NCBI GenBank assembly: GCA_963708025.1
Contig: CAVPSB010000025.1
Span: 64,001 to 128,000 of the forward strand
Origin: an uncultured Candidatus Rokubacteria bacterium
GTDB lineage: Bacteria > Methylomirabilota > Methylomirabilia > Rokubacteriales > DASRDR01
Length of the DNA stretch: 64,000 bases
Direction of reading: 5' to 3'
Part shown: positions 12,479 through 51,121 of the stretch, one piece after another
Layout of the letters: each line of letters begins with the position of its first letter
Position numbering within the stretch: position 1 is the stretch's first letter
The notes under the pieces: model-generated
Databases searched by the model: none
Told to the model about the DNA's origin: nothing
The model's input: only the letters and a program-made list of their open reading frames with translations
Position numbers and translations under genes: made by a program

Positions 12479-13465
12479 ATGACGCGATATGTCCTCCAGC
12501 GGCTCGTCCTCCTGCCCGTCCTGCTCTTCGTCTTCTCGGTCACCGTCTTCGCGATCGTCCAGGCGCCGCCCGGCGACTTCCTGACCGCGTACACGGCGAC
12601 GCTGGCGTCGTCCGGCACCTCGATCAACGCCGAGCAGCTCGAGGCCCTCCGGCGGGAGTACGGGCTCGACCAGCCGATGTACGTGCAGTACCTCAAGTGG
12701 ATGGCCAACCTCCTGCGGGGGAACCTCGGCCTGTCCCTCGAGTACCAGCGCCCGAACACCGAGCTGATCGGGGAGCGGCTGGTGCTGACCGTGATGCTGG
12801 CGCTCCTGTCGTTCGTCTTCACCTGGCTCGTCGCCGTCCCGGCCGGGATCTACTCCGCCACCCACCAGCGGTCGCTCCTCGACTACGTCCTCACGGTGCT
12901 GAACTACGTCGGCGTCGCGACGCCGAACTTCATGCTGGCGCTGATCCTGATGTGGGGCGCCTTCGCGTACTTCGGCATCGGCATCACCGGGCTGTTCTCG
13001 TCCGAGTTCGTCGAGGCGCCGTGGAGCCTGGCCCGCGTGCTCGACCTGCTGAAGCACATCTGGCTGCCGTCGGTCGTCCTGGGCGTCGCGGGGACGGCCC
13101 GGCTCACCCGGGTGATGCGGGCGAACCTCCTCGACGAGCTGAACAAGCCCTACGTCACCACGGCCCGGGCCAAGGGGCTCTCCGAGTGGCGGCTGGTGCT
13201 CCGCTACCCCGTGCGGCTCGCCCTCAACCCGCTGGTGAGCACGATCGGCTGGTACCTTCCCGCGCTCTTCTCCGGCAGCCTGATCGTCGCGACCGTCATG
13301 AACCTGCCCAACATCGGGCCGCTCCTGCTGCGGGCGCTGATCAACCAGGACATGTACCTGGCCGGCAGCATCCTGCTGATCTACTGCTTCCTGACCATCA
13401 TCGGCACCCTCGTCTCCGACGTCCTGCTGGCCTGGCTGGATCCCCGCATCCGGATGGAAGGCTAG
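12479..13465 (+). CDS. Peptide ABC permease (OppB/DppB-like)
   Basis: YVLQRL, YGLDQP, YVTTARAKGL, WLDPRIR motifs. Confidence 0.93.
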   Translation: MTRYVLQRLVLLPVLLFVFSVTVFAIVQAPPGDFLTAYTATLASSGTSINAEQLEALRREYGLDQPMYVQYLKWMANLLRGNLGLSLEYQRPNTELIGERLVLTVMLALLSFVFTWLVAVPAGIYSATHQRSLLDYVLTVLNYVGVATPNFMLALILMWGAFAYFGIGITGLFSSEFVEAPWSLARVLDLLKHIWLPSVVLGVAGTARLTRVMRANLLDELNKPYVTTARAKGLSEWRLVLRYPVRLALNPLVSTIGWYLPALFSGSLIVATVMNLPNIGPLLLRALINQDMYLAGSILLIYCFLTIIGTLVSDVLLAWLDPRIRMEG

Positions 13466-13727
13466 GGGGGCGGGGCCGATGAGCTTCGCAACATCGATCT
13501 CGGTCGGGACGCGCGCGGCCTACGGCGATCGGACGGCCTTCGGCCTTTGGGCGTCCGTCCCGACCTCTGGGTCGTTGCCGATCCTCGGCGTACTCGGAGT
13601 ACGCCTGCGGTCGGCAACTCCCTGCGTCCATTGGACGGCCTCCGGCCTGTGGGCGCTGCTCGCTCCTCGGCCCCGCCCCCGAGGACTCGACCTGTCGGCC
13701 ATGCCGTGGCATTTCGACGGGCGCTGA
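13466..13727 (+). repeat. Repeat family B (MITE-like) carrying an 82-aa ORF (13479-13727)
   Basis: Starts GGGGGCGGGGCCGATGAGCTTCGCAAC right after TAG. Homologous to 38313-38554, 49766-49927 and 39491-39519. Internal hairpin GGCGTACT-CGG-AGTACGCC. Confidence 0.85.
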
Positions 13728-13728
13728 C

Positions 13729-14900
13729 GTGACACCGACGCGTCCCCGAGCGTGAGCCCACGGAGGCGGCGGCGGTTGACGTTCTCGACGAGCCGCTGGC
13801 GGCGTCGGCGGCCGAGGACCGGATCTCGGTCGCGTCGAACTGGACCCTGGTCTGGTGGCGCTTCCGCAAGCACCGCCTGGCCCTCGCGAGCGCGGCCGCG
13901 CTCCTCGCCCTCTACGCGGTCGTTCTCTGTCCGGACGTCTTCAGCACGCAGGACCCCGAGGCGACGGAGGCCCGGCTGGCCTTCATCCCGATCCAGCGCC
14001 TGCACCTCCTCGACGGCTGGCGGTGGAGCCCCTGGGTTCCGGCGATCACCGGGAAGCGGAACCCGACGACGCTCCGCATGGAGTGGCAGGTGGATCCCGG
14101 GCGGAAGGTCCACGTGGCGTTCTTCGCCCCCGGGTACCCGTACCGGGTGCTCGGCCTGTTCCCGGCCAGCCGGCACCTGGTGGGCGTCGGCCGACGGGGC
14201 CGGCGAGCGCGTTCACCTCCTCGGGACCGACCGGCTGGGGCGGGACCAGTGGTCGCGCCTCATGCACGGCACCCAGACGTCCATGACGATCGGCCTGGTC
14301 GCCGTGACCCTGAGCGTCGTGCTTGGAGTGCTGCTGGGTGGCATCTCCGGTTACTTCGGCGGGTTGCCCGACCTGGTGATCCAGCGGATGATCGAGCTGC
14401 TGCAGTCGCTCCCGACGATCCCGATCTGGCTCGCGCTCACCGCGGCGCTGCCGCGCCACTGGTCCCCGCCCCAGGTGTTCTTCGCGATCACCGTCATCCT
14501 GTCCCTGGTGGGCTGGACGACACTGGGGCGCGAGGTGCGGGGACGGTTCCTGGCGCTTCGCGAGGAGGACTTCGTGCTGGCCGCCGAGCTGGCCGGGGCC
14601 AGCCGGCCCCGGATCATCCGCCGCCACATGGTCCCCACCTTCCTCAGCCACATCATCGCGACCAGCACGCTGGCCGTCCCGGCCATGATCATCAACGAGA
14701 CCTCGCTCTCCTTCCTGGGGCTCGGGCTGCGCCCGCCCGCCATCAGCTGGGGCGTGCTCCTCCAGGAGGCGCAGAACATCCAGACGGTGGCGCTGGCCCC
14801 CTGGCTCCTGACCCCGGGGCTCGTCGTCATCGTGTCGGTTCTCGCGTTCAACCTCGTGGGCGATGGCCTCCGGGATGCCGCCGATCCCTACTCCCACTGA
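13729..14900 (+). CDS. Peptide ABC permease (OppC/DppC-like), with two apparent +1 frameshifts (~13746, ~14189)
   Basis: WWRFRKHRLA in one frame; [30 protein letters not shown] in the next. Removing 2 nt gives 390 codons. Confidence 0.82.
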
Positions 14901-26529: not shown

Positions 26530-26535
26530 CCGGCC

Positions 26536-38310: not shown

Positions 38311-38312
38311 GC

Positions 38313-38554
38313 TCAGGTCCCTCGAAGCGCCAGGATCGTGGCGGATGCGTCCAGATCTCGGGGGCGGGGTCGAGGAGCGAGCAGCGCCCCGGGAGGCGTT
38401 CGAAGGACGCAGGGAGTCGCCGACCGCAGGCGTACTCCCAGTACGCCGAGGATCGGCGACGACCGAGGACGACCATAGGTCGGGACGGACGCGAGGCCGT
38501 AGGCCGAGCGCGTCCCGACCGAGATGAACGTTGCGAAGCTCATCGGCCCCGCCC
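38313..38554 (-). repeat. Repeat family B copy carrying a 76-aa ORF (38313-38543)
   Basis: Reverse complement is highly similar to 13466-13727 (MSFATFISVGTRSAYG..PILGVLGVRLRSATPCV..ALLAPRPRPR). Confidence 0.85.
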
Positions 38555-39442
38555 CTAGACCTCGTGGCGCTCGAGCCGCCGGCCTACCAGCCCCGTCGGC
38601 CGGGCGAGGATGAAGACGAGCATGACCCCGAAGGCCAGCGCCTCCCGCCAGGCGGCGTCGATCCGCCACAGGCCGAGATTCAAGGCGAGCCCCAGGATCA
38701 GGCCACCGAGGGCCGCCCCCGTGAAGGTGTCGGCACCGCCGACCAGGACCGCGATCGCCGCCACCAGCACGACCGGCAGGCCGCGGCCCGGCTCCAGCCC
38801 CACGTCCACCGCCCCCATGGCGGCCGACACCGCGGCCAGGGCCGAGCCGAGCCCGAAGGCGAGGAGGCGGACGCGCCCGATGTCGATGCCGACGATCCGG
38901 GCCATGGTCGGGTTGATGGTGACCGCCCGCAGCGCCTGACCGGCCGCGGTGCACCGGCGGAGCCAGTTGAGCAGCGCCAGGCAGCCGCCGGCGACGGCCA
39001 GGCCGATGAGCTGGAGGTAGGTGAACACGATGGGGCCGAGTGGGATGGCCTCCTGGAGGCGGGCCCCCACGCTCACCGTCTTGTTGTCGCCGCCGAAGAT
39101 CATCTCGACCGCGTTGTCGATGAAGATCAGCGTGCCGATGGACGCCACCAGCACCAGCATGTGGGAGGCGCCTCGCCGGGTGAGCGGCCGATAGATGACC
39201 AGCTCGATCAGGATCCCGAGGAGGGCGGCCAGCCCGACGGTGAGGCCCAGCGCGAGCCAGAAGGGGAGCCGCGCCAGCGTCACGAAGGCGTAGAGCATGT
39301 AGCCCGCCACCCCGTACACCGCGCCGTGGGCGACGTGGAAGATGCGAGTGGCCCCGAAGATCAGCGCGAAGCCCAGGGCGAGCAGGGCGAAGGCGCTGCC
39401 CTCGACGAGCCCGTTGGCGAGGAGCTGGAGCGGCATCGACAT
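38555..39442 (-). CDS. ABC permease (LivH-like)
   Basis: LALGFALIFG..HVAHG, GQALRAV motifs. Confidence 0.9.
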   Translation of the reverse strand: MSMPLQLLANGLVEGSAFALLALGFALIFGATRIFHVAHGAVYGVAGYMLYAFVTLARLPFWLALGLTVGLAALLGILIELVIYRPLTRRGASHMLVLVASIGTLIFIDNAVEMIFGGDNKTVSVGARLQEAIPLGPIVFTYLQLIGLAVAGGCLALLNWLRRCTAAGQALRAVTINPTMARIVGIDIGRVRLLAFGLGSALAAVSAAMGAVDVGLEPGRGLPVVLVAAIAVLVGGADTFTGAALGGLILGLALNLGLWRIDAAWREALAFGVMLVFILARPTGLVGRRLERHEV

Positions 39443-39445
39443 CGT

Positions 39446-39519
39446 CCCCTCGCACCCTGCACGGAGGAGAGGGTCGGGAGGGGAAGAGCTCTAGGTTCCT
39501 TGAAGCATCGGCCCCGCCC
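39446..39519 (-). repeat. Minimal family B remnant (39491-39519) plus family E palindrome (39446-39486)
   Basis: TAG GGGCGGGGCCG ATG CTT CAA GGA ACC TAG, then CCCCTCCCGACCCTCTCC..GAGGGGAC. Confidence 0.65.
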
Positions 39520-40650
39520 CTAATCCCGGTAGGTCGCGAACTTGCCGTCCTTTACCGTCTTGAAGGTTACCGGGAGGGTGACGGCGCCGTCCCGGTCGAA
39601 CGCGATCGTGCCGAGGACGCCATGGTGGCCCTTGATCTGGGAGAGGCCGTTCTTGATCCCGTCGCCGGAGTAGCCGCCCAGCTCGATCGCCCTGGCGATG
39701 AGGTGGATCGCGTCGTAGTGCGTGGCGACGTAGAGGATCGCGTCCTGGTTGTACCGGCTCCGGTACCGCTCTCCGAAGGCCTTCATGGCCGGGGTCCCGG
39801 TCTGGGGGTCGAAGGCGTTGTCGACGTAGACGAAGCCCTCGGCGGCGCCCTCGGCCAGCTCGAGCATCGCCTGGGTCACCCCCTCGGCCGAGCCGAACCA
39901 GGGCGCGGTGATCCCGAGCTGCTTGGCCTGCTTGAGGACCCGGCCGGTGTCCGAGCCGGTGCCGATCAGGACCAGGCCCTCGGGGTTCAGGGCCTTGGCC
40001 TTGGTCAGCGGCGACTTGAAGTCAGTGGGGTGTCCGGTGTAGAGGATCTCCTCGAGCACCGTCCCCCCCTTGTCGGCGAAGACCTTCTTGAAGACCTTGG
40101 CGTTGCTCAGCCCGTACTCGGTGTTCTCCCCGAAGAACACGACCTTGCGGAGCTTCTTCCGGTCGGCCACGAAGCTGGCCAGCTCGGAGGCGCTGACGAC
40201 GGCGTCGTTGAGGTTGCTGAAGGTGTAGTCGCCGGCGGTCCGGATGTCGGCCGAGTTGGCGGCGGCGTTGAAGTTGACGACCTTGTACTTCTCGGCCACC
40301 GGGGCGATGGCGAGGACCGCGTCGCTGCCGCCGGTGATCACCACCGGGACCCGGTCCACCTCGGCCAGCTTGATGAAGCCGGAGACCGCCCGCTTGGTCT
40401 CGTAGCCCCAGTCCTCCACGATCACCTCGAGCTTCTTGCCCTTGACGCCGCCCGCCTTGTTGATCTCCTCGACCGCCATCTCGACGCCGCGGTTCATGAC
40501 CTCGCCGTAGAACTTGCCGCGGCCCGACATGATGAGGAGCGCGCCGATCCGGTAGGTGTCCTCGGCGGCCCCGCCCCTGCCGAGTGGCACCAGGAGGGCG
40601 CCGAGAGTGGCGGCCACGACCAGCAGGACGATCGCGCGCTTCGTGATCAT
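39520..40650 (-). CDS. ABC substrate-binding protein (Liv/PBP1 type)
   Basis: Signal peptide, GVEMAVEEIN..GGVKG, ENTEYG motifs. Confidence 0.9.
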   Translation of the reverse strand: MITKRAIVLLVVAATLGALLVPLGRGGAAEDTYRIGALLIMSGRGKFYGEVMNRGVEMAVEEINKAGGVKGKKLEVIVEDWGYETKRAVSGFIKLAEVDRVPVVITGGSDAVLAIAPVAEKYKVVNFNAAANSADIRTAGDYTFSNLNDAVVSASELASFVADRKKLRKVVFFGENTEYGLSNAKVFKKVFADKGGTVLEEILYTGHPTDFKSPLTKAKALNPEGLVLIGTGSDTGRVLKQAKQLGITAPWFGSAEGVTQAMLELAEGAAEGFVYVDNAFDPQTGTPAMKAFGERYRSRYNQDAILYVATHYDAIHLIARAIELGGYSGDGIKNGLSQIKGHHGVLGTIAFDRDGAVTLPVTFKTVKDGKFATYRD

Positions 40651-40679
40651 GGCGGCTCTCCTCTCGTTGGGCCCGCGTG

Positions 40680-41195
40680 CTAACGGACGGCGGCCGACAG
40701 GCGGCCCGTGCGGCGGTTCCAGGCCTGGACGGCGTCGTCGGCGGCCGCGGCGTCCTCGGGGACGAAGCCGCGGACGTCACACGTCAGCTCCAGCCGGATC
40801 CCGTTCGGGTCGAAGAAGTAGATGGAGTGGCAGAAGCCGTGGTCCACCGGACCCAGCACCTTCACCCCGTTCGTCTCGAGCTGGCTCTTGTAGCGGAGCA
40901 GGGCGTCCCGGTCGGGCACCCGCAGCGCCAGGTGACGGACCCAGCCGGGCACCACGGTCTGGTCTTCCTGGTCGGGCAACCCCAGGATCTCGAAGAAGGC
41001 CACGCAGCCACCGTCCGCCATCTGGAAGAAGGTGTGGAGGTGGGGGTAGGGCTCCCGGGTGCTGGGGACCGTCTCGCTCTGCGCGTGCGCCACCAGCTTC
41101 ATGTTGAGGTACTTCGTGTAGAACTCGACCGTCTTCTGGGTGTCCCGGGTGAGATACGCGACGTGATGCAGCCGCTCGGGCGGTGGAAGTGCCAT
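40680..41195 (-). CDS. VOC/glyoxalase family protein
   Basis: LHHVAY, HTFFQMADG, RHLALRV, HSIYFFDPNGIRLE motifs. Confidence 0.9.
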   Translation of the reverse strand: MALPPPERLHHVAYLTRDTQKTVEFYTKYLNMKLVAHAQSETVPSTREPYPHLHTFFQMADGGCVAFFEILGLPDQEDQTVVPGWVRHLALRVPDRDALLRYKSQLETNGVKVLGPVDHGFCHSIYFFDPNGIRLELTCDVRGFVPEDAAAADDAVQAWNRRTGRLSAAVR

Positions 41196-41265
41196 GAGTC
41201 CTCCTGTGCCGGCTGGAATCGACTCGGGCGCCGCCATTATAGCCCGGCGGCGCCGGCCCCGGTAG

Positions 41266-41439
41266 GTGGACGGGCTCGGCCAGCGGCGCCGCGACGCGAC
41301 GCGCGAGCGCCTGCTCACCGGGGAGGGGATCCCGGCCGAGCGCCTCATCGACGCGGAGGCCACGGGCGGCCCGGCGACTCCGGCGGCCACTCCCGACGCC
41401 GAGGGCCGCGTCGAGTTCACCGTCGCAGCCGGCGAGTAG
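41266..41439 (+). pseudogene. C-terminal stump resembling the end of DUF748 family proteins
   Basis: Manual translation: LGQRRRDATRERLLTGEGIPAERL...EGRVEFTV*. Confidence 0.45.
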
Positions 41440-41484
41440 CTCCGCTGGCCCTCCCCGTGACGCTCGGATAGGATAGCCCGCGCC

Positions 41485-42339
41485 ATGCACTCACACGGTC
41501 AGGGATCCCCACGAAGTGGAGAAGGCGAAGCGCCCTGGAAGTCGCTGGAGCGGATGAACCGCTTCCAGGAACCGGAGGCGCGGCGGATCATCGCCGATCT
41601 GGCCCTGGCCCCGGGCTCACGCGGGCTCGACGTGGGCTGCGGCGTCGGGCTCTACGGCCTCTGGATGGCCGAGGCCGTGGGGAGCGCGGGGCACGTGATC
41701 GGCCTCGAGCCCGAGACGGAGCGCGTCGAAGCGGCCCGCGCCCTCGTGGGCAGCCGCATCCCGGCCGGCCGGCTCGAGTTCCGCCAGGGCGACGGGACGG
41801 CCATCCCGCTGCCCGATCGGAGCGTCAACTGGCTGTGGTGCGGCGATGTGCTCCACCACATCGTGGAGACGGAGCGGGCCCTGCGCGAGTTCCGGCGTGT
41901 GGTGCGCCCCGGGGGCCGGATCGTCATCAAGGAGTCGCAGCTCCTCTCGGCGCTCTTCCTGCCCGGTCACCCCGAGCTCGAGCGTCGGATCCAGCTGGCC
42001 GAGATCCGGCGCACTCTCGAGGAAGGCGGCGGGCGGTCGTTCCAGGAGCGACGCCAGACCACCCTCGCATCACTCCGGGCCGTGGGGCTCACCGGGGTGA
42101 CCATGCGGAGCTACCTCCTGGAGCGCCGGGCCCCGCTCGGGCCGGCCGACCACGACTATATCCAGAACACGGTCTTCGCGCGCAACTGGGGCGATCGCCT
42201 GCGCGAGCTGCTGACGCCCGATGACTGGGCTCGGCGCTCAGCCCTGTGCGAGGCGGACTCGTCCGACAATGCCCTGAAGAGCCTCGACTACTATTGCCTC
42301 TATCCGATCACGGTCTTCAGCGTGCCACTGCCCGCCTGA
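41485..42339 (+). CDS. Class I SAM-dependent methyltransferase
   Basis: LDVGCGVG, GDGTAIPLPD, LREFRRVVRPGG motifs. Confidence 0.88.
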   Translation: MHSHGQGSPRSGEGEAPWKSLERMNRFQEPEARRIIADLALAPGSRGLDVGCGVGLYGLWMAEAVGSAGHVIGLEPETERVEAARALVGSRIPAGRLEFRQGDGTAIPLPDRSVNWLWCGDVLHHIVETERALREFRRVVRPGGRIVIKESQLLSALFLPGHPELERRIQLAEIRRTLEEGGGRSFQERRQTTLASLRAVGLTGVTMRSYLLERRAPLGPADHDYIQNTVFARNWGDRLRELLTPDDWARRSALCEADSSDNALKSLDYYCLYPITVFSVPLPA

Positions 42340-42393
42340 GCACGCGGTGCCGCTGGCGGGACGAGAGAACCTCCGATCCGGCCTGCCCGCGGC

Positions 42394-43674
42394 TCAGCCG
42401 GCCGGGAAGCGGGCGCGGAGCCAGCTCCCGAGGAGCGCCAGCACCTCCGCCCGGGTGTCCCGGGTGACGCCGGCCAGCGGGATGCCGTAGTGGTCGGCCC
42501 CCTGGATCATCGCGAAGGTCTTGTCGGCGTGCGGGGCGGCGGCGTGCTGCGCCTCGGCGTCCCGCGGGTAGACCGCGTTGTCCCCGCTGTAGCCGACGAC
42601 CAGCGTCGGGAGGCTCACTCGCGGGAGGTTGTCGAGGAGCGAGGCGCGCGAGGAGAGACCGGACCACGTCGAGAGCCAGGCCCGCGGCGTGGCGAGCCGG
42701 CCGAAGGCGAAGGGCGAGCCGTAGTTGGCGAGGTCGGGCCGGTCGCTGTAGAGGTCGCCCGGCCGGCGGTCGTTCGGCTCGAGCGAGAGGTCCAGGTAGG
42801 CCAGCTCGGCGGCAGTCCGGTAGATCACCATGATGCAGTCCCGCGACGCCCGCCGTCGCAGGAAGCCCTGCTCGGCCGGCGGCAGCGCCGCCGCCCCCGG
42901 CTCGGCCAGGCGCGCGCGGAAATAGGCCTCCTCGGCGACGTGCCGGCGGGCGCGGGCGTCGAGCCGCGCCACGCGGGCCTGCTGGGCGGCCCGGTAGCGC
43001 TCGACGAACTCGGCGCCGTAGCGCGTCGGGGCGGGGGGCACCCGGAAGCCGTTGGCGGGGTCGTACGGGTCGAGCGTCGGGTCGCAGGAGAGGACGTCGC
43101 CCTCGTCGGTCACCGACGGATCGATGGCGCGGAGCAGGAACCGGCCCTGCCCGACGTGCGCGGCCAGCGAGACGAACCCGTCGGCCGGCGGCAGCTCGTG
43201 CGCGTTCAGGTCCGGCGGGTCCCCGGCCGGGGTCGCCGCCAGCCGGCCGGGCGGCGCCGTCGCCGCCTGCGCCTGGTAGAAGGCGAAGAGCGACCCGCCG
43301 CCGCTGTTGCCGAGGAAGACCACGGACCGGGCCCCGTGCCGCTCGCGCAGCAGGCGGATGCCGGCCGCGATCTCGAGCAGCACCGTCTCGTGGATCATGG
43401 CGGTGTCGTTGTTCACCCACCGGCTGGCATGCCCGAAGGCGGCGTACCCCTGCTCGACGAGCGCGGGAATCGTGTAGTGCTGTGAGAAGTCGCTGCGCGG
43501 GTGCATCAGGTAGACGACGGTCGGCGGCACGGTCGGGCCGCGCCAGTAGAGGATGCCCCGGGAGGGCACCCCGTCGTCGGCGACGATCCGCTCCACCTGG
43601 TGGCGCACCCCCGGCGGCAGCTCGCCGAACTCCACCGGCCGGTTCGCGTGCCCGTAGCGCTTGGGCTCTGCCAT
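42394..43674 (-). CDS. Alpha/beta hydrolase
   Basis: GNSGG nucleophile elbow, GD, GADH motifs. Start at MAEPK. Confidence 0.8.
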   Translation of the reverse strand: MAEPKRYGHANRPVEFGELPPGVRHQVERIVADDGVPSRGILYWRGPTVPPTVVYLMHPRSDFSQHYTIPALVEQGYAAFGHASRWVNNDTAMIHETVLLEIAAGIRLLRERHGARSVVFLGNSGGGSLFAFYQAQAATAPPGRLAATPAGDPPDLNAHELPPADGFVSLAAHVGQGRFLLRAIDPSVTDEGDVLSCDPTLDPYDPANGFRVPPAPTRYGAEFVERYRAAQQARVARLDARARRHVAEEAYFRARLAEPGAAALPPAEQGFLRRRASRDCIMVIYRTAAELAYLDLSLEPNDRRPGDLYSDRPDLANYGSPFAFGRLATPRAWLSTWSGLSSRASLLDNLPRVSLPTLVVGYSGDNAVYPRDAEAQHAAAPHADKTFAMIQGADHYGIPLAGVTRDTRAEVLALLGSWLRARFPAG

Positions 43675-43675
43675 G

Positions 43676-43788
43676 TCAGTTTCGGGACCTCCCTCCCACC
43701 CCCCCAACCCCCCTCCCCCACCGTCCGACGGCCTTCGGCCTTTGGCCGGGGGGAGGGGGAGTCGGGGGATCCATTCCTTCACACCCTC
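43676..43788 (-). repeat. Repeat family A copy (32-aa ORF 43676-43774)
   Basis: Same ends as 7276-7370, with one GACGGCCTTCGGCCTTTGG module. Confidence 0.85.
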
Positions 43789-44502
43789 TCAGCCCAGGTA
43801 GGCGCGGAGTAGCTCCGGATGAGTGAGGAGGTCGGCCGGGGCGCCCTCGAGCGCCGTGAGCCGGCCGAGCTTCATCAGGTAGACGCGATCCGCGATCGGC
43901 AGCACCTGGCGGACGTTCTGCTCGACCATCAGGATCGTCGTGTGAAGCCCCCGGTTGATCTCCTTCACCTTGGCCAGCGTCTTCTCCAGCGCGAGCGGGG
44001 CCAGCCCGATCGAGGGCTCGTCGACCAGCAGCAGGGTGGGGGCGCTCATGAGCCCCATGCCGATGGCCAGCATCTGCCGCTCGCCGCCCGACAGCGAGGC
44101 CGCGCGCTGCCCGGCCCGCTCGGCCAGGACCGGGAAGAGCGCCAGCACCTGCTCGAGCTGGCGGCGCCGGGCGGTCCGGTCGGGGAGGGTCCACGCCCCC
44201 AGCTCGAGGTTCTCGCGCACGGTCATCTCGCCGAAAGTGAGGCCGCCCTGCGGCACGAGCGTGAGGCCGGCCCGAAGGTTCTCCGCGACGGAGCGCCCGG
44301 CGAGGTCCTGGCCCCGGAAGCGGATCCGCCCCTGGTAGGGCAGGAGCCCCAGGATGGCGTGGAGCGTCGTGGTCTTGCCGGCGCCGTTCGGCCCGGACAT
44401 GACCGCGGCCTCGCCGTCCTCCAGCACGAGATCGACCCCCAACAGCACCGGCTTCGGCCCGAAGCTGACCCGGAGCCCGGTGATCTCGAGCAGGGGGGCC
44501 AT
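43789..44502 (-). CDS. ABC ATPase (LivF-like)
   Basis: GPNGAGKT, LSGGERQM, DEPSIGL motifs. Confidence 0.92.
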   Translation of the reverse strand: MAPLLEITGLRVSFGPKPVLLGVDLVLEDGEAAVMSGPNGAGKTTTLHAILGLLPYQGRIRFRGQDLAGRSVAENLRAGLTLVPQGGLTFGEMTVRENLELGAWTLPDRTARRRQLEQVLALFPVLAERAGQRAASLSGGERQMLAIGMGLMSAPTLLLVDEPSIGLAPLALEKTLAKVKEINRGLHTTILMVEQNVRQVLPIADRVYLMKLGRLTALEGAPADLLTHPELLRAYLG

Positions 44503-44635
44503 CAGTTCGTGACCTCCCGCCCACCCGATCCTTCGACGGCCTTCGGCCTTTGGCCCCCCTCCCCTACCGGTGGACGGCCTTCGGCCTTTGGCCGGAGGGA
44601 GGGGGGAGTCCAGGGCCGCATTCCGTCACACGCTC
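44502..44635 (-). repeat. Repeat family A copy (39-aa ORF 44502-44621)
   Basis: TCAG at both ends, two GACGGCCTTCGGCCTTTGG modules. Confidence 0.85.
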
Positions 44636-45418
44636 TCAGGGCGACGCGCCGGGCGGCGCATCGAGACTGCCGCCCAGGTACGTGGTCACCACGACGGGAT
44701 CCGCCCGGACTGCCGCCGGGGGGCCGGCGGCGATCAGCCGGCCGTGGTCGAGGGCGACCACCCAGTCGGAGACGCCCATCACGGCCTCCATGTTGTGGTT
44801 GACCAGCAGCACGGTGCGGCCGCGCGCCACCAGGTCCCGGATGATCCTCAGGATGCCGTCGATCATGGCGGGAGGCAGCCCCGCCACCGGCTCGTCGAGC
44901 AGGACCAGCCGGGCGTCGGTCGCCAGCACCCGGGCGATGGCCAGGAGCTTCTGATCCCCGTACGCCAGGCGATCGGCCGCCTCCTCGGCCCGGTCGCCGA
45001 GGCCGACCAGCTCCAGGATCTCACGGGCCCGGTGCCGGGCGGGATCGCGCGCGGCCGGCGGCCGGCGCCCGAGGATTGCGCCGGCGAGGCGCTCGCCGGC
45101 CTGGTCCGGCACGCCGAAGAGCACGTTCTCGAGCGCGGTCATCCGGCGGAAGAGCTTCACGTCCTGGAACGTCCGCGCGATCCCGAGCCGGGCGATCCGG
45201 TCGGGCGGCAGCGAGCCGATGAGACGGCCGTCGTAGACGATGCGACCCGCGTCGCAGGAGAGAAAGCCGCCGATGACGTGGAAGAGGGTGGTCTTGCCGG
45301 CCCCGTTGGGGCCGATCAGGCCCGTGATGCGCGCCGGCTCGACGGCGAAGGAGACGTCGGCCAGCGCCTGGACGCCGCCGAACCGCTTGGAGACCCGATC
45401 CACCTCGAGGAGGGCCAT
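44636..45418 (-). CDS. ABC ATPase (LivG-like)
   Basis: GPNGAGKT, GIARTFQ, LLDEPVAG motifs. Confidence 0.92.
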   Translation of the reverse strand: MALLEVDRVSKRFGGVQALADVSFAVEPARITGLIGPNGAGKTTLFHVIGGFLSCDAGRIVYDGRLIGSLPPDRIARLGIARTFQDVKLFRRMTALENVLFGVPDQAGERLAGAILGRRPPAARDPARHRAREILELVGLGDRAEEAADRLAYGDQKLLAIARVLATDARLVLLDEPVAGLPPAMIDGILRIIRDLVARGRTVLLVNHNMEAVMGVSDWVVALDHGRLIAAGPPAAVRADPVVVTTYLGGSLDAPPGASP

Positions 45419-45431
45419 CGCGTGCCCCGCA

Positions 45432-45818
45432 TTATAGCTTCGGCGCGGACGGCAGGGCGCGGAGGTAGGCGATCAGCGCCTGGATCTCGCCGTCGGTCAG
45501 GGTGAAGCCGAAGGACGGCATGCCCGGCTTGCCGAAGGTCGAACCGCCCTGCCGGATGATGTCGGCGAGGTACTGGTCGGGGAGGGCCGCCGTCTCGGGG
45601 CCGGCCAGGTTGCCGGGGCGCAGGAGGAGGAGCCGGGCCCGCCAGGAGCCGCCGCGTCCGTCGGAGCCGTGGCAGGTCGCGCAGTGGGCGTGGAAGAGCG
45701 AGCGACCCGGCTCGGGGCCCGGCGGGCTGGGCGGGAGCGGGGCGAGGAGCAGCACGGCGACCAGCGCGACGAGGCCGAGCGTGACGAGGCCGGCGGCCCC
45801 GAGCAGGATCCGCTTCAT
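45432..45818 (-). CDS. Monoheme c-type cytochrome with N-terminal membrane anchor
   Basis: CATCH heme motif, GMPSF distal Met, N-terminal TM segment. Confidence 0.88.
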   Translation of the reverse strand: MKRILLGAAGLVTLGLVALVAVLLLAPLPPSPPGPEPGRSLFHAHCATCHGSDGRGGSWRARLLLLRPGNLAGPETAALPDQYLADIIRQGGSTFGKPGMPSFGFTLTDGEIQALIAYLRALPSAPKL

Positions 45819-46561
45819 CGGCCCGGGGTCGGAGGCTGGCCAGGCGCCAGCTCGAGCAGCGTGCGGCGCACCTCCGGGTCCTCGAGGAGCGCCGGTCCGG
45901 GTCCTTCCGTGAGGACCTGGCCCTGCTGGAGGACGTAGGCCCGGTCGGCCAGCCCGAGGAGGCGGCGGACGTGCTGGCCGGCGGCGAGGATCGCGACGCC
46001 CCGGACGCGGGTCAGCTCGCGCAGGACGGCGCAGAAGCGCGCGATCGCCGTCCGGGCGAGGCCGAGGAAGGGGTCGTCCAGGATGAGCAGCCGGGGCCGC
46101 GCCATCAGGCCGCGGGCGAGGGCCACCATCTGCTGCTCGCCGCCCGACAGCGTGCCGGCCGCCCGGTCCCGCGCGTCGCGCACGAGGGGGAACAGCTCCT
46201 CGCACATGGCGCGGGCGGCGATCGCCTCCCGGCGCGCCGGTGCCAGGTAGGCGCCGAGCTCGAGGTTCTCGCCCACCGTCAGCTCCTCGAAGAGCCCGCG
46301 GCCCTCGGGGATCGTCGCCACGCCGAGCGCGGCGATGCGGTAGGGCGCCAGCCCGTCGATCCGGACGCCGTCGAGCCGGATGGTCCCGCCGCGGAGCGGC
46401 AGCCGGCCGGTGACGGCGCGCAGGAGCGTCGTCTTGCCGGCGCCGTTGCCGCCGACGAGGGCGACCAGCTCCGCGGCCCCGACCGCGATCGACACGTCCT
46501 GCACGATCAGGGCGCCTCCGTAGCCCGCGCTCACGCCCTCGACGGCCAGCAGCGGCGTCAT
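45815..46561 (-). CDS. ABC ATPase (LivF-like)
   Basis: GGNGAGKT, PEGRGLF, LSGGEQQM. Walker B reads LDDP. Confidence 0.88.
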   Translation of the reverse strand: MTPLLAVEGVSAGYGGALIVQDVSIAVGAAELVALVGGNGAGKTTLLRAVTGRLPLRGGTIRLDGVRIDGLAPYRIAALGVATIPEGRGLFEELTVGENLELGAYLAPARREAIAARAMCEELFPLVRDARDRAAGTLSGGEQQMVALARGLMARPRLLILDDPFLGLARTAIARFCAVLRELTRVRGVAILAAGQHVRRLLGLADRAYVLQQGQVLTEGPGPALLEDPEVRRTLLELAPGQPPTPGR

Positions 46562-47229
46562 CTCGGCACCAGGGTGAGGTCGAAGCGCACCTTGACGTCG
46601 TCCTTGATCGGGTTGAGCCGGCTCTGGTAGGCGATGCCGAACTCCTGCCGGTTCACGACCAGGTCGCCGGTGACGCGGATCGCCCCGCCGGTGAGGGCCA
46701 CGGTGACCGGCACCGTGACGGGCCGGCTCACGCCGCGGATCGTCAGCTCGCCGCCGACGAGGACGCGCTCGCCCTCGCGCCGCACCCCCGCGACGACGAG
46801 CGTCGCCTCGGGGTGGCTTCGGGCGTCGAAGAAGTCCTCGCTGCGCAGGTGGTTGTCCCGCGTCCCGTTCGCGGTGTCGATCGAGGCCACCTCGACGGTG
46901 ACCCGGCCGGCGGCCGTCTCGAGACGTCCGTCCTCGAGACGCAGCTCCCCGCCGAAACGCCGGAAGCCGCCGTCGGCGTCCATGAAGCGGGAGACCGCGT
47001 AGAAGCGGAGCTGGCTGCGGGCCGGGTCGATGGCGTAGAGCCGGGGCTCCGCGCGCGCCGCGACGGAGGGCAGCAGGAGGAGCGCGACCAGCGCCAGCGC
47101 GCGACCGACGTCTGTTCGGGACCTCCCGCCCACCCGATCCTTCGACGGCCTTCGGCCTTTGGCCCCCCTCCCCCACCGTCGGACGGCCTTCGGCCTTTGG
47201 CCGGGGAGGGGGGAGCCGGAGCACCCCAT
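46558..47229 (-). CDS. YceI family (polyisoprenoid/lipid-binding) protein; start lies inside a repeat
   Basis: YAIDPARS, VASIDT..RDNHLRSEDFFD, GELTIRGV motifs and a signal-like hydrophobic stretch. Confidence 0.85.
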   Translation of the reverse strand: MGCSGSPLPGQRPKAVRRWGRGAKGRRPSKDRVGGRSRTDVGRALALVALLLLPSVAARAEPRLYAIDPARSQLRFYAVSRFMDADGGFRRFGGELRLEDGRLETAAGRVTVEVASIDTANGTRDNHLRSEDFFDARSHPEATLVVAGVRREGERVLVGGELTIRGVSRPVTVPVTVALTGGAIRVTGDLVVNRQEFGIAYQSRLNPIKDDVKVRFDLTLVPR

Positions 47230-47242
47230 TCCCTCACTGCTC
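47111..47242 (-). repeat. Repeat family A copy overlapping the yceI 5' end
   Basis: Close match to 44502-44635. Confidence 0.85.
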
Positions 47243-47965
47243 TTACTCCTCGTCGCCAAGGTAGGCCTCCTTCACCCGTGGCGAGCCGAGGACCTCGACC
47301 GGCCGGCCGTCCGCCACGATCGCGCCCTGGTCCAGCACCACCATCCGGTCGGCCAGCTCGGCGAGCACGCCGACCGAGTGCTCGATCGCCAGGATCGTGA
47401 GCCCGCGGGCCCGGAGCCGGCCGTAGAAGCGGATGACCTCCTCGCGCCCCCGGGGCGTCAGGCCGGCGGACAGCTCGTCGAGGAGGAGCAGCCGCGGCTC
47501 GGGGCCGAGGGCGCAGGCCAGCTCGAGCCGCTTCTGCTGGCCGAGCGAGAGCTCCCCGGCGCGCGCGGTCGGCCGATCGTGGAGGCCGACCAGCTCGAGC
47601 AGCCGCTCGGCCCGTCGCCGGCGCTCGCTCGCGGAGCGGCGGCGATGGCCGCCGCCGAACGTGACGCCGACGAGGACGTTGTCGAGAGCCGGCAGGTCGT
47701 TGAAGAGCCGGGCGATCTGGAAGGTCCGGCCGATCCCGAGGGCGGCGATCCGGTGGGGCGGCAGGCGGGTCAGGTCGGCTCCCTGGAACCGGACGGCGCC
47801 GGCGGTCGGCCGGACGAGCCCGCTGACGACGTCGAAGAGCGTCGTCTTGCCGGCGCCGTTCGGCCCGAGGACGGCGACCAGCGAGCCCGGCTCGATCGCC
47901 AGGCTCACCTCGCGGAGCGCCTCGAGCCCGCCGTACCGCTTGCTCACCCGCTGGAGCTCGAGCAT
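47243..47965 (-). CDS. ABC ATPase (LivG-like)
   Basis: GPNGAGKT, GIGRTFQ, VKEAYLG motifs. Confidence 0.9.
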   Translation of the reverse strand: MLELQRVSKRYGGLEALREVSLAIEPGSLVAVLGPNGAGKTTLFDVVSGLVRPTAGAVRFQGADLTRLPPHRIAALGIGRTFQIARLFNDLPALDNVLVGVTFGGGHRRRSASERRRRAERLLELVGLHDRPTARAGELSLGQQKRLELACALGPEPRLLLLDELSAGLTPRGREEVIRFYGRLRARGLTILAIEHSVGVLAELADRMVVLDQGAIVADGRPVEVLGSPRVKEAYLGDEE

Positions 47966-48894
47966 CACGCGCGACGGAGGAGGCCGGCCAGGCCCTTCGG
48001 GAAGACCAGCACCACCAGGATGAGCGCCGCCGCGTAGGGGAGCTGGTGGAGGCGCGGGAGGGCCGGCTGGAGCACGACCTCCGAGACCAGGTAGAGGAGC
48101 AGGGCGCCGGCCGCCGGCCCCAGGAGCGCGTGCACGCCGCCGAAGACCGCCATGATGAGCGGCAGGAGCGACAGCGCGCGGCCGAAGACCAGGTCCGGCT
48201 CGATGAACCGCACGGCGTGGGCGTAGAGGGCCCCGCCCGCCGCCGTGAGGGCGCCGGAGCAGGCGAAGGCGAGGAGCGTGTACGGCGCCGGGTTCACGCC
48301 GAGGAGCTGGGCGCGCTGGCGCGACTCGCGGATCGCCGCCCACGCCAGCCCGACCCGCGTGCGACGGAGCCCGGCGAACGCGCCGAGCGCCAGCAGCAGG
48401 AGGCCGAGCGCCAGGTAGTAACCGCCGGCGCGGTCGCGCGTCAGCTCGAGAGGCAGGCCGGGCAGGGCTGGCAAGGCGGGGATCCCGATCAGCCCGGCGC
48501 CGCCGCCGGTCAGCGCCGTCCAGTTGAGCGCGATCAGCCGCCCGCCCTCGGCGTAGGCGAAGGTGGCCAGCGCCAGGTAGGCGCCGGCCAGGCGCTGGGC
48601 GGTGAGCCCGATCGGCACGGCCACCGCGGCGCCCACGCCGACGGCGGCGGCGACGGCGAGCCAGGGGCTCCACCCCGCGCGCTGGCTGAGGAGGGCGCTG
48701 GCGTAGGCGCCGGCCCCGAAGTAGACGGCGTGGCCGAAGGAGATCTGGCCGGCGAAGGCGAGGAGGCTCCACGCGCTGGCCAGGGTGGCCCACCGGAAGG
48801 CCGCGCCGAGGACGTAGAGGGCATAGGGATCGAAGCCGAGGAGCGGCGGCCCGGCCAGGGCCAGGGCGAGGATCGCCACCGGGAGCGCCTTCAT
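47965..48894 (-). CDS. ABC permease (LivM-like)
   Basis: GQISFGHA, TGGGAGL, AIRES motifs. Confidence 0.88.
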   Translation of the reverse strand: MKALPVAILALALAGPPLLGFDPYALYVLGAAFRWATLASAWSLLAFAGQISFGHAVYFGAGAYASALLSQRAGWSPWLAVAAAVGVGAAVAVPIGLTAQRLAGAYLALATFAYAEGGRLIALNWTALTGGGAGLIGIPALPALPGLPLELTRDRAGGYYLALGLLLLALGAFAGLRRTRVGLAWAAIRESRQRAQLLGVNPAPYTLLAFACSGALTAAGGALYAHAVRFIEPDLVFGRALSLLPLIMAVFGGVHALLGPAAGALLLYLVSEVVLQPALPRLHQLPYAAALILVVLVFPKGLAGLLRRA

Positions 48895-49769
48895 CCGGCG
48901 GGCTTTCGCTCGGGGGTCCCCGGGCGGGCGAGGAGCACGGCCAGCAGCACGGCGACCACGACCAGCTCCCGCCAGCGCGGGCCGGCCCAGGCGAGCGTCA
49001 GCGCCTCGAGGAGGCCGATCGCGAGCCCGGCGCCCAGGAGGCCGACCAGCGGCTCCCGGCGGCTCCAGGCGCGGCCGAGGATCGCCAGCGTGATGGCCGA
49101 GAGCGTCAGCTCGACGCCCGCCCCGGGGTGCAGGTAGTGGGACGCGGCGAAGAGCACGCCGCCGAGGCCGGCGATGGCCGCCGCCGCCGCGAAGGTCACC
49201 ACGGAGACCCGGTCCGTGTTGACGCCGAGGAGGGCGGCCGTCCCCGCGTCCCGCGCCGTGGCCCGGAGGGCGATGCCCCACCGGGTGTGGTCGAGCAGGA
49301 GCTGGAGCCCGACGATGGTCACCAGCGCGACCCCGGCCGCGGCCCCCCGCGGAGCCGACATCCCGAGGATCCCGGTGGCGGCGCCCGCCTCGCTCGCGGT
49401 CGCGATGATGCGGTAGTCGGCGGACCAGGTCGCCAGCATGGCGTCCTGGAGGAGGAGCGAGAGGCCGAAGGTGAGCGCCATGCTGTTCAGCTCGACCGGC
49501 TCCCGCACCCGGTGGAGGAGCGCGCGCCAGACGAGGCCGACCGGGATCAGGGCGACGGCGGCGAGCGGCGCCAGCACGAGCGGCGGCCACCCGGAGAGGC
49601 GCCCGGCCGTGTAGCCGAGGTAGCCGCCGAGCAGGACCCACTCGCCGTGGGCGAGGTTGAGCGCGCGCGTGAGCCCGAAGACCGCGGCGAAGGCCAGGGC
49701 CAGAAAGGCGTAGAACGCGCCGTTGGCCAGGCCGGCGAGGACCGCCTCGCCCAGCGTCGTCAGGCTCAC
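48891..49769 (-). CDS. ABC permease (LivH-like)
   Basis: LNLAHGE, GIALRATA motifs. GTG start. Confidence 0.88.
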   Translation of the reverse strand: MSLTTLGEAVLAGLANGAFYAFLALAFAAVFGLTRALNLAHGEWVLLGGYLGYTAGRLSGWPPLVLAPLAAVALIPVGLVWRALLHRVREPVELNSMALTFGLSLLLQDAMLATWSADYRIIATASEAGAATGILGMSAPRGAAAGVALVTIVGLQLLLDHTRWGIALRATARDAGTAALLGVNTDRVSVVTFAAAAAIAGLGGVLFAASHYLHPGAGVELTLSAITLAILGRAWSRREPLVGLLGAGLAIGLLEALTLAWAGPRWRELVVVAVLLAVLLARPGTPERKPAG

Positions 49770-49927
49770 CAGGGTCCTTGGGGCGCCAAAACCAATGCAG
49801 GTGAGCTGCCTCCTCGGGGGCAGGGCCGAGGAGCGAGCAGCGCCCACAGGCCGAAGGCCGTCCGATCGACGTAGGCCGAGCGCGTCACGACCGAGATGAA
49901 CATTGCGACGCTCATCGGCCCTGCCCG
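49766..49927 (-). repeat. Repeat family B copy carrying a 49-aa ORF (49766-49915)
   Basis: TAG CGGGCAGGGCCG ATGAGCGTCGCAATGTTCATCTCGGTC.. encodes MSVAMFISVVTRSAYVDRTAFGLWALLAPRP..QGPW*. Confidence 0.82.
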
Positions 49928-51121
49928 CTAGGACGCGGACGGGCGGGGATGGATCAGGCGCGCCGTGGCCGCGCCGGCCGGGTAGACGACGACGTGGCGG
50001 CCGCCCTGGATCTGGACGATCACCCGCTGGTAGAAGAGCGGGTCGCCATCGGGGGCGAACCGGACCCGGCCCAGCGGCGTCTCGACGTTGACGCGGCCGA
50101 GCGCCGCCCGCAGGGGCTCGCCCGCCGCCGGCTGGCCGTCGCGAGCGGCCGCCTCCAGCGCGACCAGCAGCGCGCGAGCGGCGGCATAGCCGTGCATGGC
50201 CAGCGGCACCGGCTCCTGCTTGAAGCGGTTCCGGTAGGCGTCGACGAAGCTCCGCGATTCGTCGGGGGCAGCCGGCACGAACACCCCCGGCTGCCAGGCC
50301 GTCGTTCCCAGGAGGCCCTCGGCCGCGGCGCCCAGCTCGCGGATCACCGCCGGGAACTCGAGGCCGAAGGCGCCGAGGAACCCCTTGGCACGCCACCCGC
50401 TCCGGGGGAGCTGCCGCACGATGAGGAGATGGTCGGCGAAGAAGGCGTCGGAGAGGAGCACCTCGGCGTCCTTGTCGCGGGCCCGGTTGAGCAGCGGGGT
50501 GAAGTCGGCCAGGCCGGGCGAGAACGGCTCGAAGACCGCGACCGGGATGGAGGCGGCGGCCAGCGCGTCGCGCTGGCGCGTGGCGAGCTGGCTGGCACCG
50601 GGCGTCGACGAGTAGAGGATCGCCACGCGGGCCGGCCGCAGGGCGTCCCGGACCACGCCGACGGTCGACTCGATGTAGGGCTCGAGGCTGGAGACCCGGA
50701 AGAAGTAGCGGTAGCCGCGCTGGCTGAGCCGCTCGTCGAGCGAGGCCGTCGCGAGGTAGGGCGTCCGGCTGCGCTCGGCGACCTCGCTGACGGGGCCGAC
50801 CAGGCTGTCGACGTAGCCCCCGATCAGCGCCGCCACGCGGTGGCGCGCGGTCAGCTCCTCGGCCGCCGCGATGGCGCGCTCGGGCTTGCCCTCGTCGTCC
50901 CGCTCGAGGAGCCGCACCGGCCGCCCGGCGACGCCGCCCCGCAGGTTGGCGGCCTCGACCGCGATCTGGATCCCCTGGGCCACCGCCAGCCCCTGGGCGG
51001 CCAGCGGGCCGGTCCGGGAGTTGATCTCGCCGACGACGAGCGGCTCGACGGCGTCGGCCGGCGCGGCGATCACGGCGAGAGCCAGCAGGGTGACGGCACG
51101 AAGCGGGTGGCGGAGCTTCAT
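49928..51121 (-). CDS. ABC substrate-binding protein (Liv/PBP1 type)
   Basis: Signal peptide, GGVAGRPV..DDEGKP, YRYFFR motifs. Confidence 0.88.
   Translation of the reverse strand: MKLRHPLRAVTLLALAVIAAPADAVEPLVVGEINSRTGPLAAQGLAVAQGIQIAVEAANLRGGVAGRPVRLLERDDEGKPERAIAAAEELTARHRVAALIGGYVDSLVGPVSEVAERSRTPYLATASLDERLSQRGYRYFFRVSSLEPYIESTVGVVRDALRPARVAILYSSTPGASQLATRQRDALAAASIPVAVFEPFSPGLADFTPLLNRARDKDAEVLLSDAFFADHLLIVRQLPRSGWRAKGFLGAFGLEFPAVIRELGAAAEGLLGTTAWQPGVFVPAAPDESRSFVDAYRNRFKQEPVPLAMHGYAAARALLVALEAAARDGQPAAGEPLRAALGRVNVETPLGRVRFAPDGDPLFYQRVIVQIQGGRHVVVYPAGAATARLIHPRPSAS

Follow-up and report, generated by a model that had tools for sequence, protein, structure and literature searches.

How a small repeat can sit between the genes of an operon without harming the gene that follows is the question raised by four sequences in the 64,000-nt stretch of DNA analysed here (the window). 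In the first-pass annotation, these four copies of a repeat, family B, were described as lying directly 3' of the TAG of an ABC-transporter gene, co-oriented with transcription and carrying an ATG 11-13 nt downstream of that TAG. The ATG opens an ORF (ORF0) of 82, 76, 5 or 49 aa, and these ORFs were proposed to relay ribosomes to the next cistron. The layout, the ATG spacing and the ORF lengths were all confirmed in the window after the coordinates were re-read (Table 1). The reading favoured here, with a probability of roughly 0.6, is that family B is a high-copy, lineage-specific, gene-less repeat of the MITE/REP/BOX kind which is tolerated at gene junctions, and that its ATG-started frame is a by-product, not a relay.

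Table 1. Positions of the four family B copies and their flanking features in the window.
Feature	Position	Strand	Description
Copy 1, upstream stop	13463..13465	+	TAG ending the BPD_transp_1 permease gene 12479-13465; left end 2 nt downstream
Copy 1, palindromic body	13468..13678	+	211 nt; GGGC at 13468; MFE -158.7 kcal/mol, z -5.2
Copy 1, arms			left arm GGGCGGGGCCGATGAGC with ATG 13479-13481, then nested hairpin modules; right arm end GGCCCCGCCC
Copy 1, tail	13679..13727	+	non-palindromic, diverged from consensus; terminal TGA 13725-13727
Copy 1, ORF0	13479-13727	+	82 aa
Copy 2, upstream stop	38555..38557	-	TAG ending the LivH-like permease gene 38555-39442; copy 2 directly abuts
Copy 2, palindromic body	38362..38554	-	193 nt; ATG 38543-38541; MFE -134.3, z -3.3
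Copy 2, tail	38313..38361	-	SD-like GAGGGA 38323-38318; TGA 38315-38313 ends the 76-aa ORF
Copy 2, downstream		-	GC, then GTG 38310, start of the LivM-like gene
Copy 3 with its TAG	39491..39522	-	TAG 39520-39522 ends a binding-protein gene; mini copy of 29 nt
Copy 3, make-up			left-arm tip fused to tail end, ...CTTCAAGGAACCTAG
Copy 4, upstream stop	49928..49930	-	TAG ending the Peripla_BP_6 binding-protein gene 49928-51121; copy starts 1 nt after
Copy 4, palindromic body	49818..49926	-	109 nt; ATG 49915-49913; MFE -88.7, z -3.0
Copy 4, tail	49766..49817	-	SD-like AAGGA 49779-49775; stop of the 49-aa ORF0 overlaps the next start, GTGA 49769-49766
Copy 4, downstream		-	GTG start 49769-49767 of the LivH-like gene

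By Pfam, the genes 5' of the four copies encode a BPD_transp_1 permease, a BPD_transp_2 permease and two Peripla_BP_6 binding proteins. The claim that the long ORFs stop at the next start stands for copies 2 and 4, since BPD_transp_2 domains beginning at residue 5 and residue 11, respectively, support 38310 and 49769 as starts. For copy 1 it does not, because GTG 13729, before which the ORF was said to stop by 1 nt, is out of frame with the downstream ORF that holds the BPD_transp_1 domain (13752-14900). The 5-aa copy, copy 3, is indeed the two ends joined (39491-39519): 15 nt from the beginning of the left arm run into the last ~17 nt of the tail, reading ATG CTT CAA GGA ACC TAG. Another ends-only copy resembling it is found at C12. 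A search of the whole window against Rfam gave 0 matches at the gathering score.

The genome is an 8.2 Mb, 49-contig MAG from an uncultured soil bacterium of the Methylomirabilota and contains about 170-200 copies of family B. A genome-wide Hamming scan found 203 left ends, of which 168 have a right arm and 97 the full tail. The left end lies between -2 and +8 nt from a same-strand stop codon in 128 of the 203 cases, 81 of them at exactly +1 nt, against 2.0% expected under random oriented intergenic placement, so that position and orientation relative to stop codons are both beyond chance. The adjoining stops are TAG in 104 copies, TGA in 19 and TAA in 5 (odds ratio 11.6), compared with a genome usage of 1901 TAG (28%), 4490 TGA and 326 TAA. 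A preference for TAG alone, however, fails to explain the placement, because the trinucleotide occurs much more often in uncalled DNA (13735) than as a stop codon (1901). In 13 more copies, the upstream ORF terminates at the TGA within the element's own GATGAGC, and 12 of these 13 have no TAG at the left. At tandem junctions, 134 copies are co-oriented and 27 anti-oriented. Genes were called with a simple in-house caller whose start choice favours SD-like motifs.

Narrower rules of placement were tried and rejected. Operons, which had been taken as the target, are not preferred (80% versus a 78% baseline), and ABC-transporter genes make up 11 of 91 upstream genes versus 8% of all genes, as tallied in a smaller set of 91 stop-adjacent copies among 121 elements. 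Replication-strand targeting is not seen either, copies lying on the G-rich strand in 62-63% of cases and genes in 58-61%, so that orientation follows the genes. Copies with TGA at the left are not demonstrably older (p=0.12), and their right triplet is an intact TAG in 7/9; the strand percentages and the age comparison come from smaller copy sets and agree in direction with the Hamming-scan census. With regard to a target-site duplication, 33 of the 71 stop-adjacent copies that have a tail are flanked by TAG left and right, but the right triplet is mostly TAG whether the left stop is TAG or TGA (33 and 7 cases), and the base before the left TAG shows no clear covariation with that before the right (p=0.07).

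From 5' to 3', the order is a stop codon, mostly TAG, at a modal spacing of 1 nt from the left tip; a left arm with the ATG; 0-4 hairpin modules; a right arm; and a non-palindromic tail of ~48 nt ending in AAGGA-ACC-TAG, i.e., an SD-like AAGGA, 3 nt and TAG. The palindromes of the 168 copies with both arms span 74-447 nt and fall into length classes of 83, 124, 145, 166, 178, 199, 220, 241 and 262 nt with steps of 21, 41 and 54 nt, showing the BOX-like build of fixed end modules and a variable number of internal ones. The element is small, non-coding and dispersed in many copies, as expected of a MITE, and no Pfam family matched the ORF0 peptides. The two arms are inverted repeats of each other, but such repeats do not form the outermost ends, because beyond the right arm follows the tail of ~48 nt, which is not complementary to the left end. 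One outer-stem mismatch is conserved, with T in the left arm (GATGAGC) in 105/114 and G in the right arm (GAGGAGC) in 108/108.

Mean MFE is -105 kcal/mol, and 45 distinct sequences of the central hairpin show compensatory pairs at 24-30 (C-G in 34, T-A in 11) and 11-43 (G-C in 32, C-G in 6). Folding is equally strong on the two strands (56/112 sense, 56/112 antisense). An SD-like tetramer is found in 76 of 97 tails. Of 45 operon-like copies, 23 have the start called for the next gene no more than 9 nt past the tail end, which suggests that the tail SD may be used, although its apparent use is inflated because the caller's start choice rewards SD-like motifs. A promoter in the tail was rejected, as the -35-like TTGACT has no -10 partner by eye.

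In the relay as proposed, ribosomes terminating at TAG would restart at the ATG 12 nt on, cross the hairpin and reach the next start, and polarity would be avoided. Copies 2 and 4 in the window fit this course, whereas the start downstream of copy 1 does not. The consensus ATG shares its frame with the upstream stop in 85 of 128 copies. Two module lengths, 21 and 54 nt, are divisible by three, and palindrome length is 1 mod 3 in 122 of 168 cases; however, the central module, at 41 nt, is not divisible by three, and non-modal lengths have no 3n bias (23/22/18 by residue mod 3). In 31 of 97 copies, frame 0 runs exactly to the terminal triplet (frame 2 in 16, frame 1 in 0), suggesting that the master copy may have had an ATG-to-TAG frame. 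Every frame in the window copies was said to stay open to the far end, but genome-wide, frames 0 and 2 are equally open across the palindrome (155/168 each; frame 1, 4/168) and same-composition shuffles are open in ~90-96 of 168 (~55%); frame preservation no better than chance is what the annotation itself had named as telling against its proposal, and this is largely what is seen. Among 60 operon-like copies, 22 have an ORF0 that stops between -4 and +10 nt from the start called next (7 and 0 have this in the other frames), but no bridging is found in the remaining 38, and ORF0 is open to the end as often in operon-like copies (22/45) as in others (26/52; p=1). Of nine copies in relatives from other genera, six have no ATG in the left arm and still abut a stop. 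Since the tail has its own SD, a relay is not needed.

The first-pass annotation knew of no description of such coupling for these repeats, but the idea that repeats might couple ORFs is not new, since mycobacterial MIRUs (Supply et al. 1997, via PMC12548453) are a published precedent. They are described there as in-operon repeats in one orientation, with small ORFs touching the neighbouring stop and start codons, and are proposed to insert with little effect on the downstream gene. MIRUs are, however, 40-100 bp tandem units whose insertion is said to occur at start codons, with -4 coupling (PMC12548453), whereas family B has a long modular palindrome at the stop codon, a separate SD-bearing tail and an ORF that is not maintained, the stop-to-start bridge of a MIRU not being kept across copies. 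The precedent speaks for a relay, but by the counts above the relay is quite improbable. The ATG-started frame is better read as a by-product of GC-rich DNA, of two module sizes that happen to be divisible by three, and of the probable descent of all copies from a single master.

The repeat was also taken for a non-autonomous mobile element. Family B is dispersed and gene-less and, judged from the sequence comparisons, very probably is, or recently was, mobile. At one junction examined in 14 genomes of a related genus, the element is present in 2, and other inserts or none are present in the rest. Copies in relatives abut a stop in 9/9 cases (TAG 6, TGA 2, TAA 1). In the nearest relative (G002), where empty sites were sought, both junctions are occupied by different inserts, and variable presence is seen elsewhere; none of the comparisons gave a clean pair of filled and empty sites at near-identity. 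At the LivH/LivM junction, TAG with family B here corresponds to TGA with a family A-like insert in that relative, family A being an unrelated repeat of the same genome whose 5' triplet is TGA in 103 of 181 copies. C33 has TAG followed by the element, and its homologue on C4, 93-95% identical, has TGA with no element. These three observations hint that families A and B may each bring their own 5' stop (TGA in A, TAG in B) and a 3' SD, integrate at the end of an ORF and replace the native stop. Against such stop swapping, TAG is also present at C13 and in four alleles of genus g5 that lack the element. The idea is doubtful. If true, the two families would be frame-exact, operon-compatible intercistronic cassettes moved by a stop-codon-directed mechanism.

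How the element moves is a separate matter, and an enzyme would presumably be involved. A Y1 transposase of the IS200/IS605 or RAYT type, inserting a single strand 3' of (C)TAG, would fix the orientation and explain the unlike ends. CTAG is preferred at the left (C precedes TAG in 22/37 copies versus 625/1901 TAG stops) and also closes the right end, and the conserved mismatched T of the outer stem is in keeping with such an enzyme. However, Y1_Tnp (PF01797) has 0 matches in this genome and none in G001, G002, G003, G005 and G006, five other genera holding related copies; it is present in 11 of 31 relatives searched, in which its genes are not flanked by elements. Moreover, orientation does not track GC skew, and the TGA or TAA abutted by 24/128 copies and the absence of TAG from most internal-TGA copies do not fit a CTAG target, so that this route is distinctly unlikely. 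No autonomous IS with the same ends was found, there being no long left end-to-tail pair, and the DDE_Tnp_1 and DDE_3 loci have no family B ends; as the genome is a 49-contig MAG, a partner IS may be unassembled. An IS630-like remnant on C38 (degenerate DDE_3) was rejected as partner, since it also has no family B ends.

Alternatively, family B could be a host-selected RNA element, the post-stop stem-loop being kept for mRNA stability, processing or relative operon expression. REP stem-loops act on malEFG expression. The compensatory pairs favour an RNA role, as do an orientation strictly with transcription, a sense strand richer in G-U pairs (478/6987 versus 117/6617), and UUCG-type loops, the 15-nt module GGACGGCCTTCGGCC occurring 600 times versus 10 for its reversed control. 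However, close relatives differ in presence at the same junction, no tie to gene class or operons is seen, folding energies are equal for sense and antisense, and the compensatory variants may merely mark sub-families needed for mobility as DNA hairpins. Selection by the host is thus rather unlikely, though less so than the relay. 

In the preferred reading of a junction-tolerated repeat, the element would sit co-oriented directly after an ORF and leave the end of the upstream protein unchanged, the TGA inside GATGAGC could serve as a backup stop that, in a different frame, helps to end that protein, and the tail would place a ribosome-binding site before the next gene. The element would be tolerated because the upstream protein end is kept and the tail supplies this site. 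If co-transcribed with its neighbours, as is presumed, it would give the mRNA a long stem-loop just past the stop codon, as with REP, ERIC and BOX repeats, and may have some effect at the RNA level.

Among known systems, family B resembles REP/BIME and REPIN-RAYT repeats as an abundant, GC-rich extragenic palindrome of mosaic build at gene 3' ends. REP/BIME repeats affect mRNA stability, and many REPs reportedly (Liang, Rudd and Deutscher, 2015) lie within 15 nt of stop codons. Unlike REPs, family B has 74-447 nt rather than ~35 nt, a fixed polarity with a tail, and no RAYT gene, flanked by repeats or otherwise, in this genome. IS630 elements duplicate TA and have inverted-repeat ends, the latter unlike family B. 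The preference for CTAG is shared with IS630/Tc1-mariner elements, as stated in the title of Tenzen & Ohtsubo 1991 (cited in PMC2170065).

The BOX elements of Streptococcus pneumoniae (PMC3049150) comprise boxA, a variable number of boxB and boxC, form stem-loops and vary in length; they are co-transcribed and have open frames on either strand, the ORFs being probably untranslated according to the authors, and of 58 overlapping CDSs, 36 take their stop codon from the repeat. Family B is likewise modular, length-variable and stem-loop-forming with open frames. In contrast, BOX elements come from another phylum, differ in sequence, end in terminal inverted repeats with a target duplication and have a proposed IS partner (PMC3049150), whereas family B has a non-palindromic tail and no partner found, and its stop-adjacent copies predominate (63%) instead of being a minority. 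The background of PMC3049150 describes ERIC/IRU and Correia (CREE) repeats as 100-160 nt hairpins in transcribed intergenic DNA with orientation-dependent RNA effects; they insert at TA and have symmetric inverted repeats, and the text there describes no 1-nt stop anchoring or SD-bearing tail for them.

Literature searches returned no description of family B. Its anatomy and census are now given for a poorly studied soil phylum, and they describe a small selfish repeat closely fitted to operon junctions, one end bearing a stop codon and the other a ribosome-binding site. Families A and B offer a within-genome contrast for the study of 1-nt stop-codon placement in one orientation, and for annotation, ORFs inside family B repeats should not be called as genes.

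Metagenome contigs covering 37400-50300 of the window are 88-99% identical to it and break at the repeats; no element-removing joint was found among them. An RNA-library contig (X15) at a depth of 2.1 extends from the LivH-like gene into copy 4, a signal not strong enough for co-transcription to be called. One contig joint recurs, 38473>38532, and it is a module-length variant that may derive from other copies.

All four window copies of family B, the repeat under study, lie where the first-pass annotation had placed them, directly after the TAG of an upstream gene coding for a part of an ABC transporter (4/4) and in the orientation of that gene (4/4). The motif GGGC(G/A)GGGCCG-ATG was recovered in 4/4 copies, as were the sizes of the frame opened by its ATG (ORF0, frame 0), i.e., 82, 76, 5 and 49 codons in copies 1–4, respectively. 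Copy 3 is indeed two ends joined, its left tip being fused to the tail end, and one further ends-only mini copy of this type was found. A Hamming scan of the genome (8.17 Mb, 49 contigs, 71.2% GC; closest named relative, a Candidatus Methylomirabilota MAG) gave 203 left-end candidates, a few of which are chance matches within genes; 168 possess a right arm and 97 a full tail.

Features of repeat families A and B and of their shared hairpin module (window positions)
Feature	Position	Strand	Description
Copy 1, upstream stop	13463-13465	+	TAG, ends BPD_transp_1 permease gene
Copy 2, upstream stop	38555-38557	-	TAG, ends BPD_transp_2 permease gene
Copy 3, upstream stop	39520-39522	-	TAG, ends Peripla_BP_6 binding-protein gene
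Copy 4, upstream stop	49928-49930	-	TAG, ends Peripla_BP_6 binding-protein gene
Family B, part 1			stop codon (5' end)
Family B, part 2			left arm, GGGCGGGGCCGATGAGC(G/T)TCGCA
Family B, part 3			hairpin modules, optional
Family B, part 4			right arm, GCGCTGCTCGCTCCTCGGCCCCGCCC
Family B, part 5			non-palindromic tail, ~48 nt, consensus 3' end GGCGCTTCAAGGAACCTAG
Central hairpin, pair 24-30			C-G 34 / T-A 11
Central hairpin, pair 25-29			T-A 29 / G-C 12
Central hairpin, pair 11-43			G-C 32 / C-G 6
Family A copy	7193-7374	- (gene sense)
Family A copy	43681-43792	- (gene sense)
Family A copy	44554-44640	- (gene sense)
Family A copy	47163-47213	- (gene sense)
GGACGGCCTTCGGCC module, example	13533-13547
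GGACGGCCTTCGGCC module, example	47179-47203

The placement of family B is strongly non-random. Using gene calls from our own crude codon-usage caller (6737 genes, ending in TGA 4490, TAG 1901 and TAA 326 times), 128/203 left ends were found at −2 to +8 nt from the stop of a same-strand gene, exactly at +1 in 81, vs. 2.0% expected under random oriented placement in uncalled DNA. The adjacent stop is TAG in 104, TGA in 19 and TAA in 5 of these copies (odds ratio for TAG, 11.6). In 13 additional copies, 12 of which lack a flanking TAG, the upstream ORF terminates at the TGA within GATGAGC, and a TAG occurs at the tip of 18/75 non-stop-adjacent copies. A preference for TAG combined with loss of intragenic insertions does not explain this placement, because TAG is far commoner outside stops (13735 trinucleotides in uncalled DNA and 35806 within genes vs. 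1901 stops). In tandem gene contexts, 134 copies are co-oriented vs. 27 anti-oriented; GC skew was considered as the orienting factor and rejected (62–63% of copies vs. 58–61% of genes on the G-rich strand), orientation following the genes. No preference was detected for ABC-transporter genes (11/91 upstream genes vs. 541/6737 genome-wide, p = 0.17) or for co-directional neighbours (80% vs. 78%), and the transporter genes at 4/4 window copies reflect local gene content.

The TAG at the left tip may be an insertion target or may arrive with the element. A junction compared across 14 genomes of one related genus carries the element in 2/14, a left-arm remnant in 1 and different hairpin inserts in several, and its element-free alleles show short spacers with TAG in 4 and TGA plus 7 nt in 1. 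Within the MAG under study, contig C33 carries TAG plus the element and its 93–95% identical homologue on C4 carries TGA plus 21 nt; C40 carries TAG plus the element and its homologue on C13 has TAG as well, followed by other repeats and an apparent IS. The nearest relative's genome (G002) has TGA at both compared window junctions, each followed by a different insert. In its orthologous SBP-LivH-LivM operon (L012, locus 1400-1540 and upstream of 2382), different structured inserts of ~105 and ~190 nt occupy the same two junctions, the first with CTGA on either side. No Y1 transposase was found in the genome under study; in relatives its distribution is patchy, without flanking family B elements, and no family B ends were found at this genome's DDE loci. 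On C13 (− strand, 643727/643879) and C15 (321753/321980), a second family B copy starts within the first copy's tail, just after its CATGA/CATGG, i.e., it is inserted beside a TGA-like triplet that is not the stop of any gene. An insertion of ~1.2 kb at C13:384200-385500, beside the C13 site homologous to that of the C40 element, interrupts a family A-like hairpin; it resembles an IS and bears a long ORF on the other strand.

Family B is a long nested palindrome (copy 1, −158.7 kcal/mol, z = −5.2; copy 2, −134.3 kcal/mol, z = −3.3; copy 4, −88.7 kcal/mol, z = −3.0), whose five-part layout was read from alignments of length classes and of right flanks. The palindromes fall into classes of 83, 124, 145, 166, 178, 199, 220, 241 and 262 nt, separated by steps of 21, 41 and 54 nt, and the ATG-making position distinguishes the arms (T in 105/114 left arms, G in 108/108 right arms). 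Across 45 distinct sequences, base pairs of the central hairpin have changed in a compensatory manner, and the sense strand has a fourfold higher frequency of G-U pairs (478/6987) than the antisense strand (117/6617), the folding energies of both strands being equal. These features are compatible either with a function of the RNA or with one of DNA hairpins in mobility.

The first-pass annotation proposed that ORF0 hands ribosomes from the upstream stop to the next start. The underlying observation, i.e., repeats after stops oriented with transcription, is real; the ribosome relay built on it is not supported. The openness of ORF0 across the palindrome is equalled by frame 2 (155/168 each; frame 1, 4/168), and two stop-free frames in the consensus are unremarkable, because same-composition shuffles are open in about 90–96/168. 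Palindrome lengths equal 1 mod 3 in 122/168, an excess that the 21- and 54-nt modules account for, and the 63 non-modal lengths, distributed 23/22/18 over the residues, give no indication of a preserved frame. Among 97 copies, the terminal triplet serves as the stop of ORF0 in 31, of frame 2 in 16 and of frame 1 in 0; among 60 operon-like copies, 22, 7 and 0, respectively, have that frame's stop at −4 to +10 nt from the called start that follows. Given the excess of frame 0 relative to frame 2, the master copy may have had an ATG-to-TAG frame. There is no sign of its maintenance; ORF0 stays open up to the element's end in 22/45 operon-like vs. 26/52 other copies (p = 1), and the nine copies found in nine other genomes (seven genera) abut a stop in 9/9 (TAG 6, TGA 2, TAA 1) and contain the ATG in only 3/9.

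The next starts proposed at 38310 and 49769 are backed by the point where the permease domain begins. GTG 13729, proposed after copy 1, was not supported, the domain-bearing ORF being 13752-14900 in a different frame. Its BPD_transp_1 domain appears only from residue 192; translation probably begins well past 13752, in which case a long gap behind copy 1 would be untranslated. An SD-like tetramer directly precedes the terminal triplet in 76/97 tails, and a called start lies ≤9 nt beyond the tail end, leaving no space for a different SD, in 23/45 operon-like copies, a count skewed upward because the gene caller rewards SD-like motifs. The domain-checked starts of copies 2 and 4 (GAGGGA-7 nt-GTG and AAGGA-5 nt-GTG) are both clean. 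One RNA-library contig (run X15, depth 2.1; 49677-49860) joins part of copy 4 to the beginning of the LivH-like gene, a weak hint of their co-transcription.

No published description of these repeats was found in the literature searched; family B, with its stop-codon-precise and transcription-oriented placement, is a new family, and repeats of such a kind are already known. The passages of PMC12548453 on small-ORF coupling in MIRU provide a precedent for the relay idea. The closest architectural match is the BOX element, described in passages of PMC3049150 as modular, with open frames on both strands that were judged probably untranslated, and as supplying the stop codon of 36 CDSs. A title in the reference list of PMC2170065 records a CTAG preference of IS630.

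Family A, a second repeat family (GAGCGTGTGAAGGAATGG..., a C-rich/G-rich hairpin, ...GGGAGGTCCCGAA), likewise begins directly after stops, with TGA as its triplet. This 5' triplet is TGA in 103/181 copies genome-wide, and the stop-adjacent copies number 82 (TGA 75, TAA 4, TAG 3); at the 3' end, an SD-like GGGAGG stands ahead of the next ATG. The 15-nt hairpin module GGACGGCCTTCGGCC, which has a UUCG-type loop, occurs 600 times genome-wide with ≤1 mismatch vs. 10 for the reversed control, and is a plug-in unit common to families A and B that is present in relatives too.
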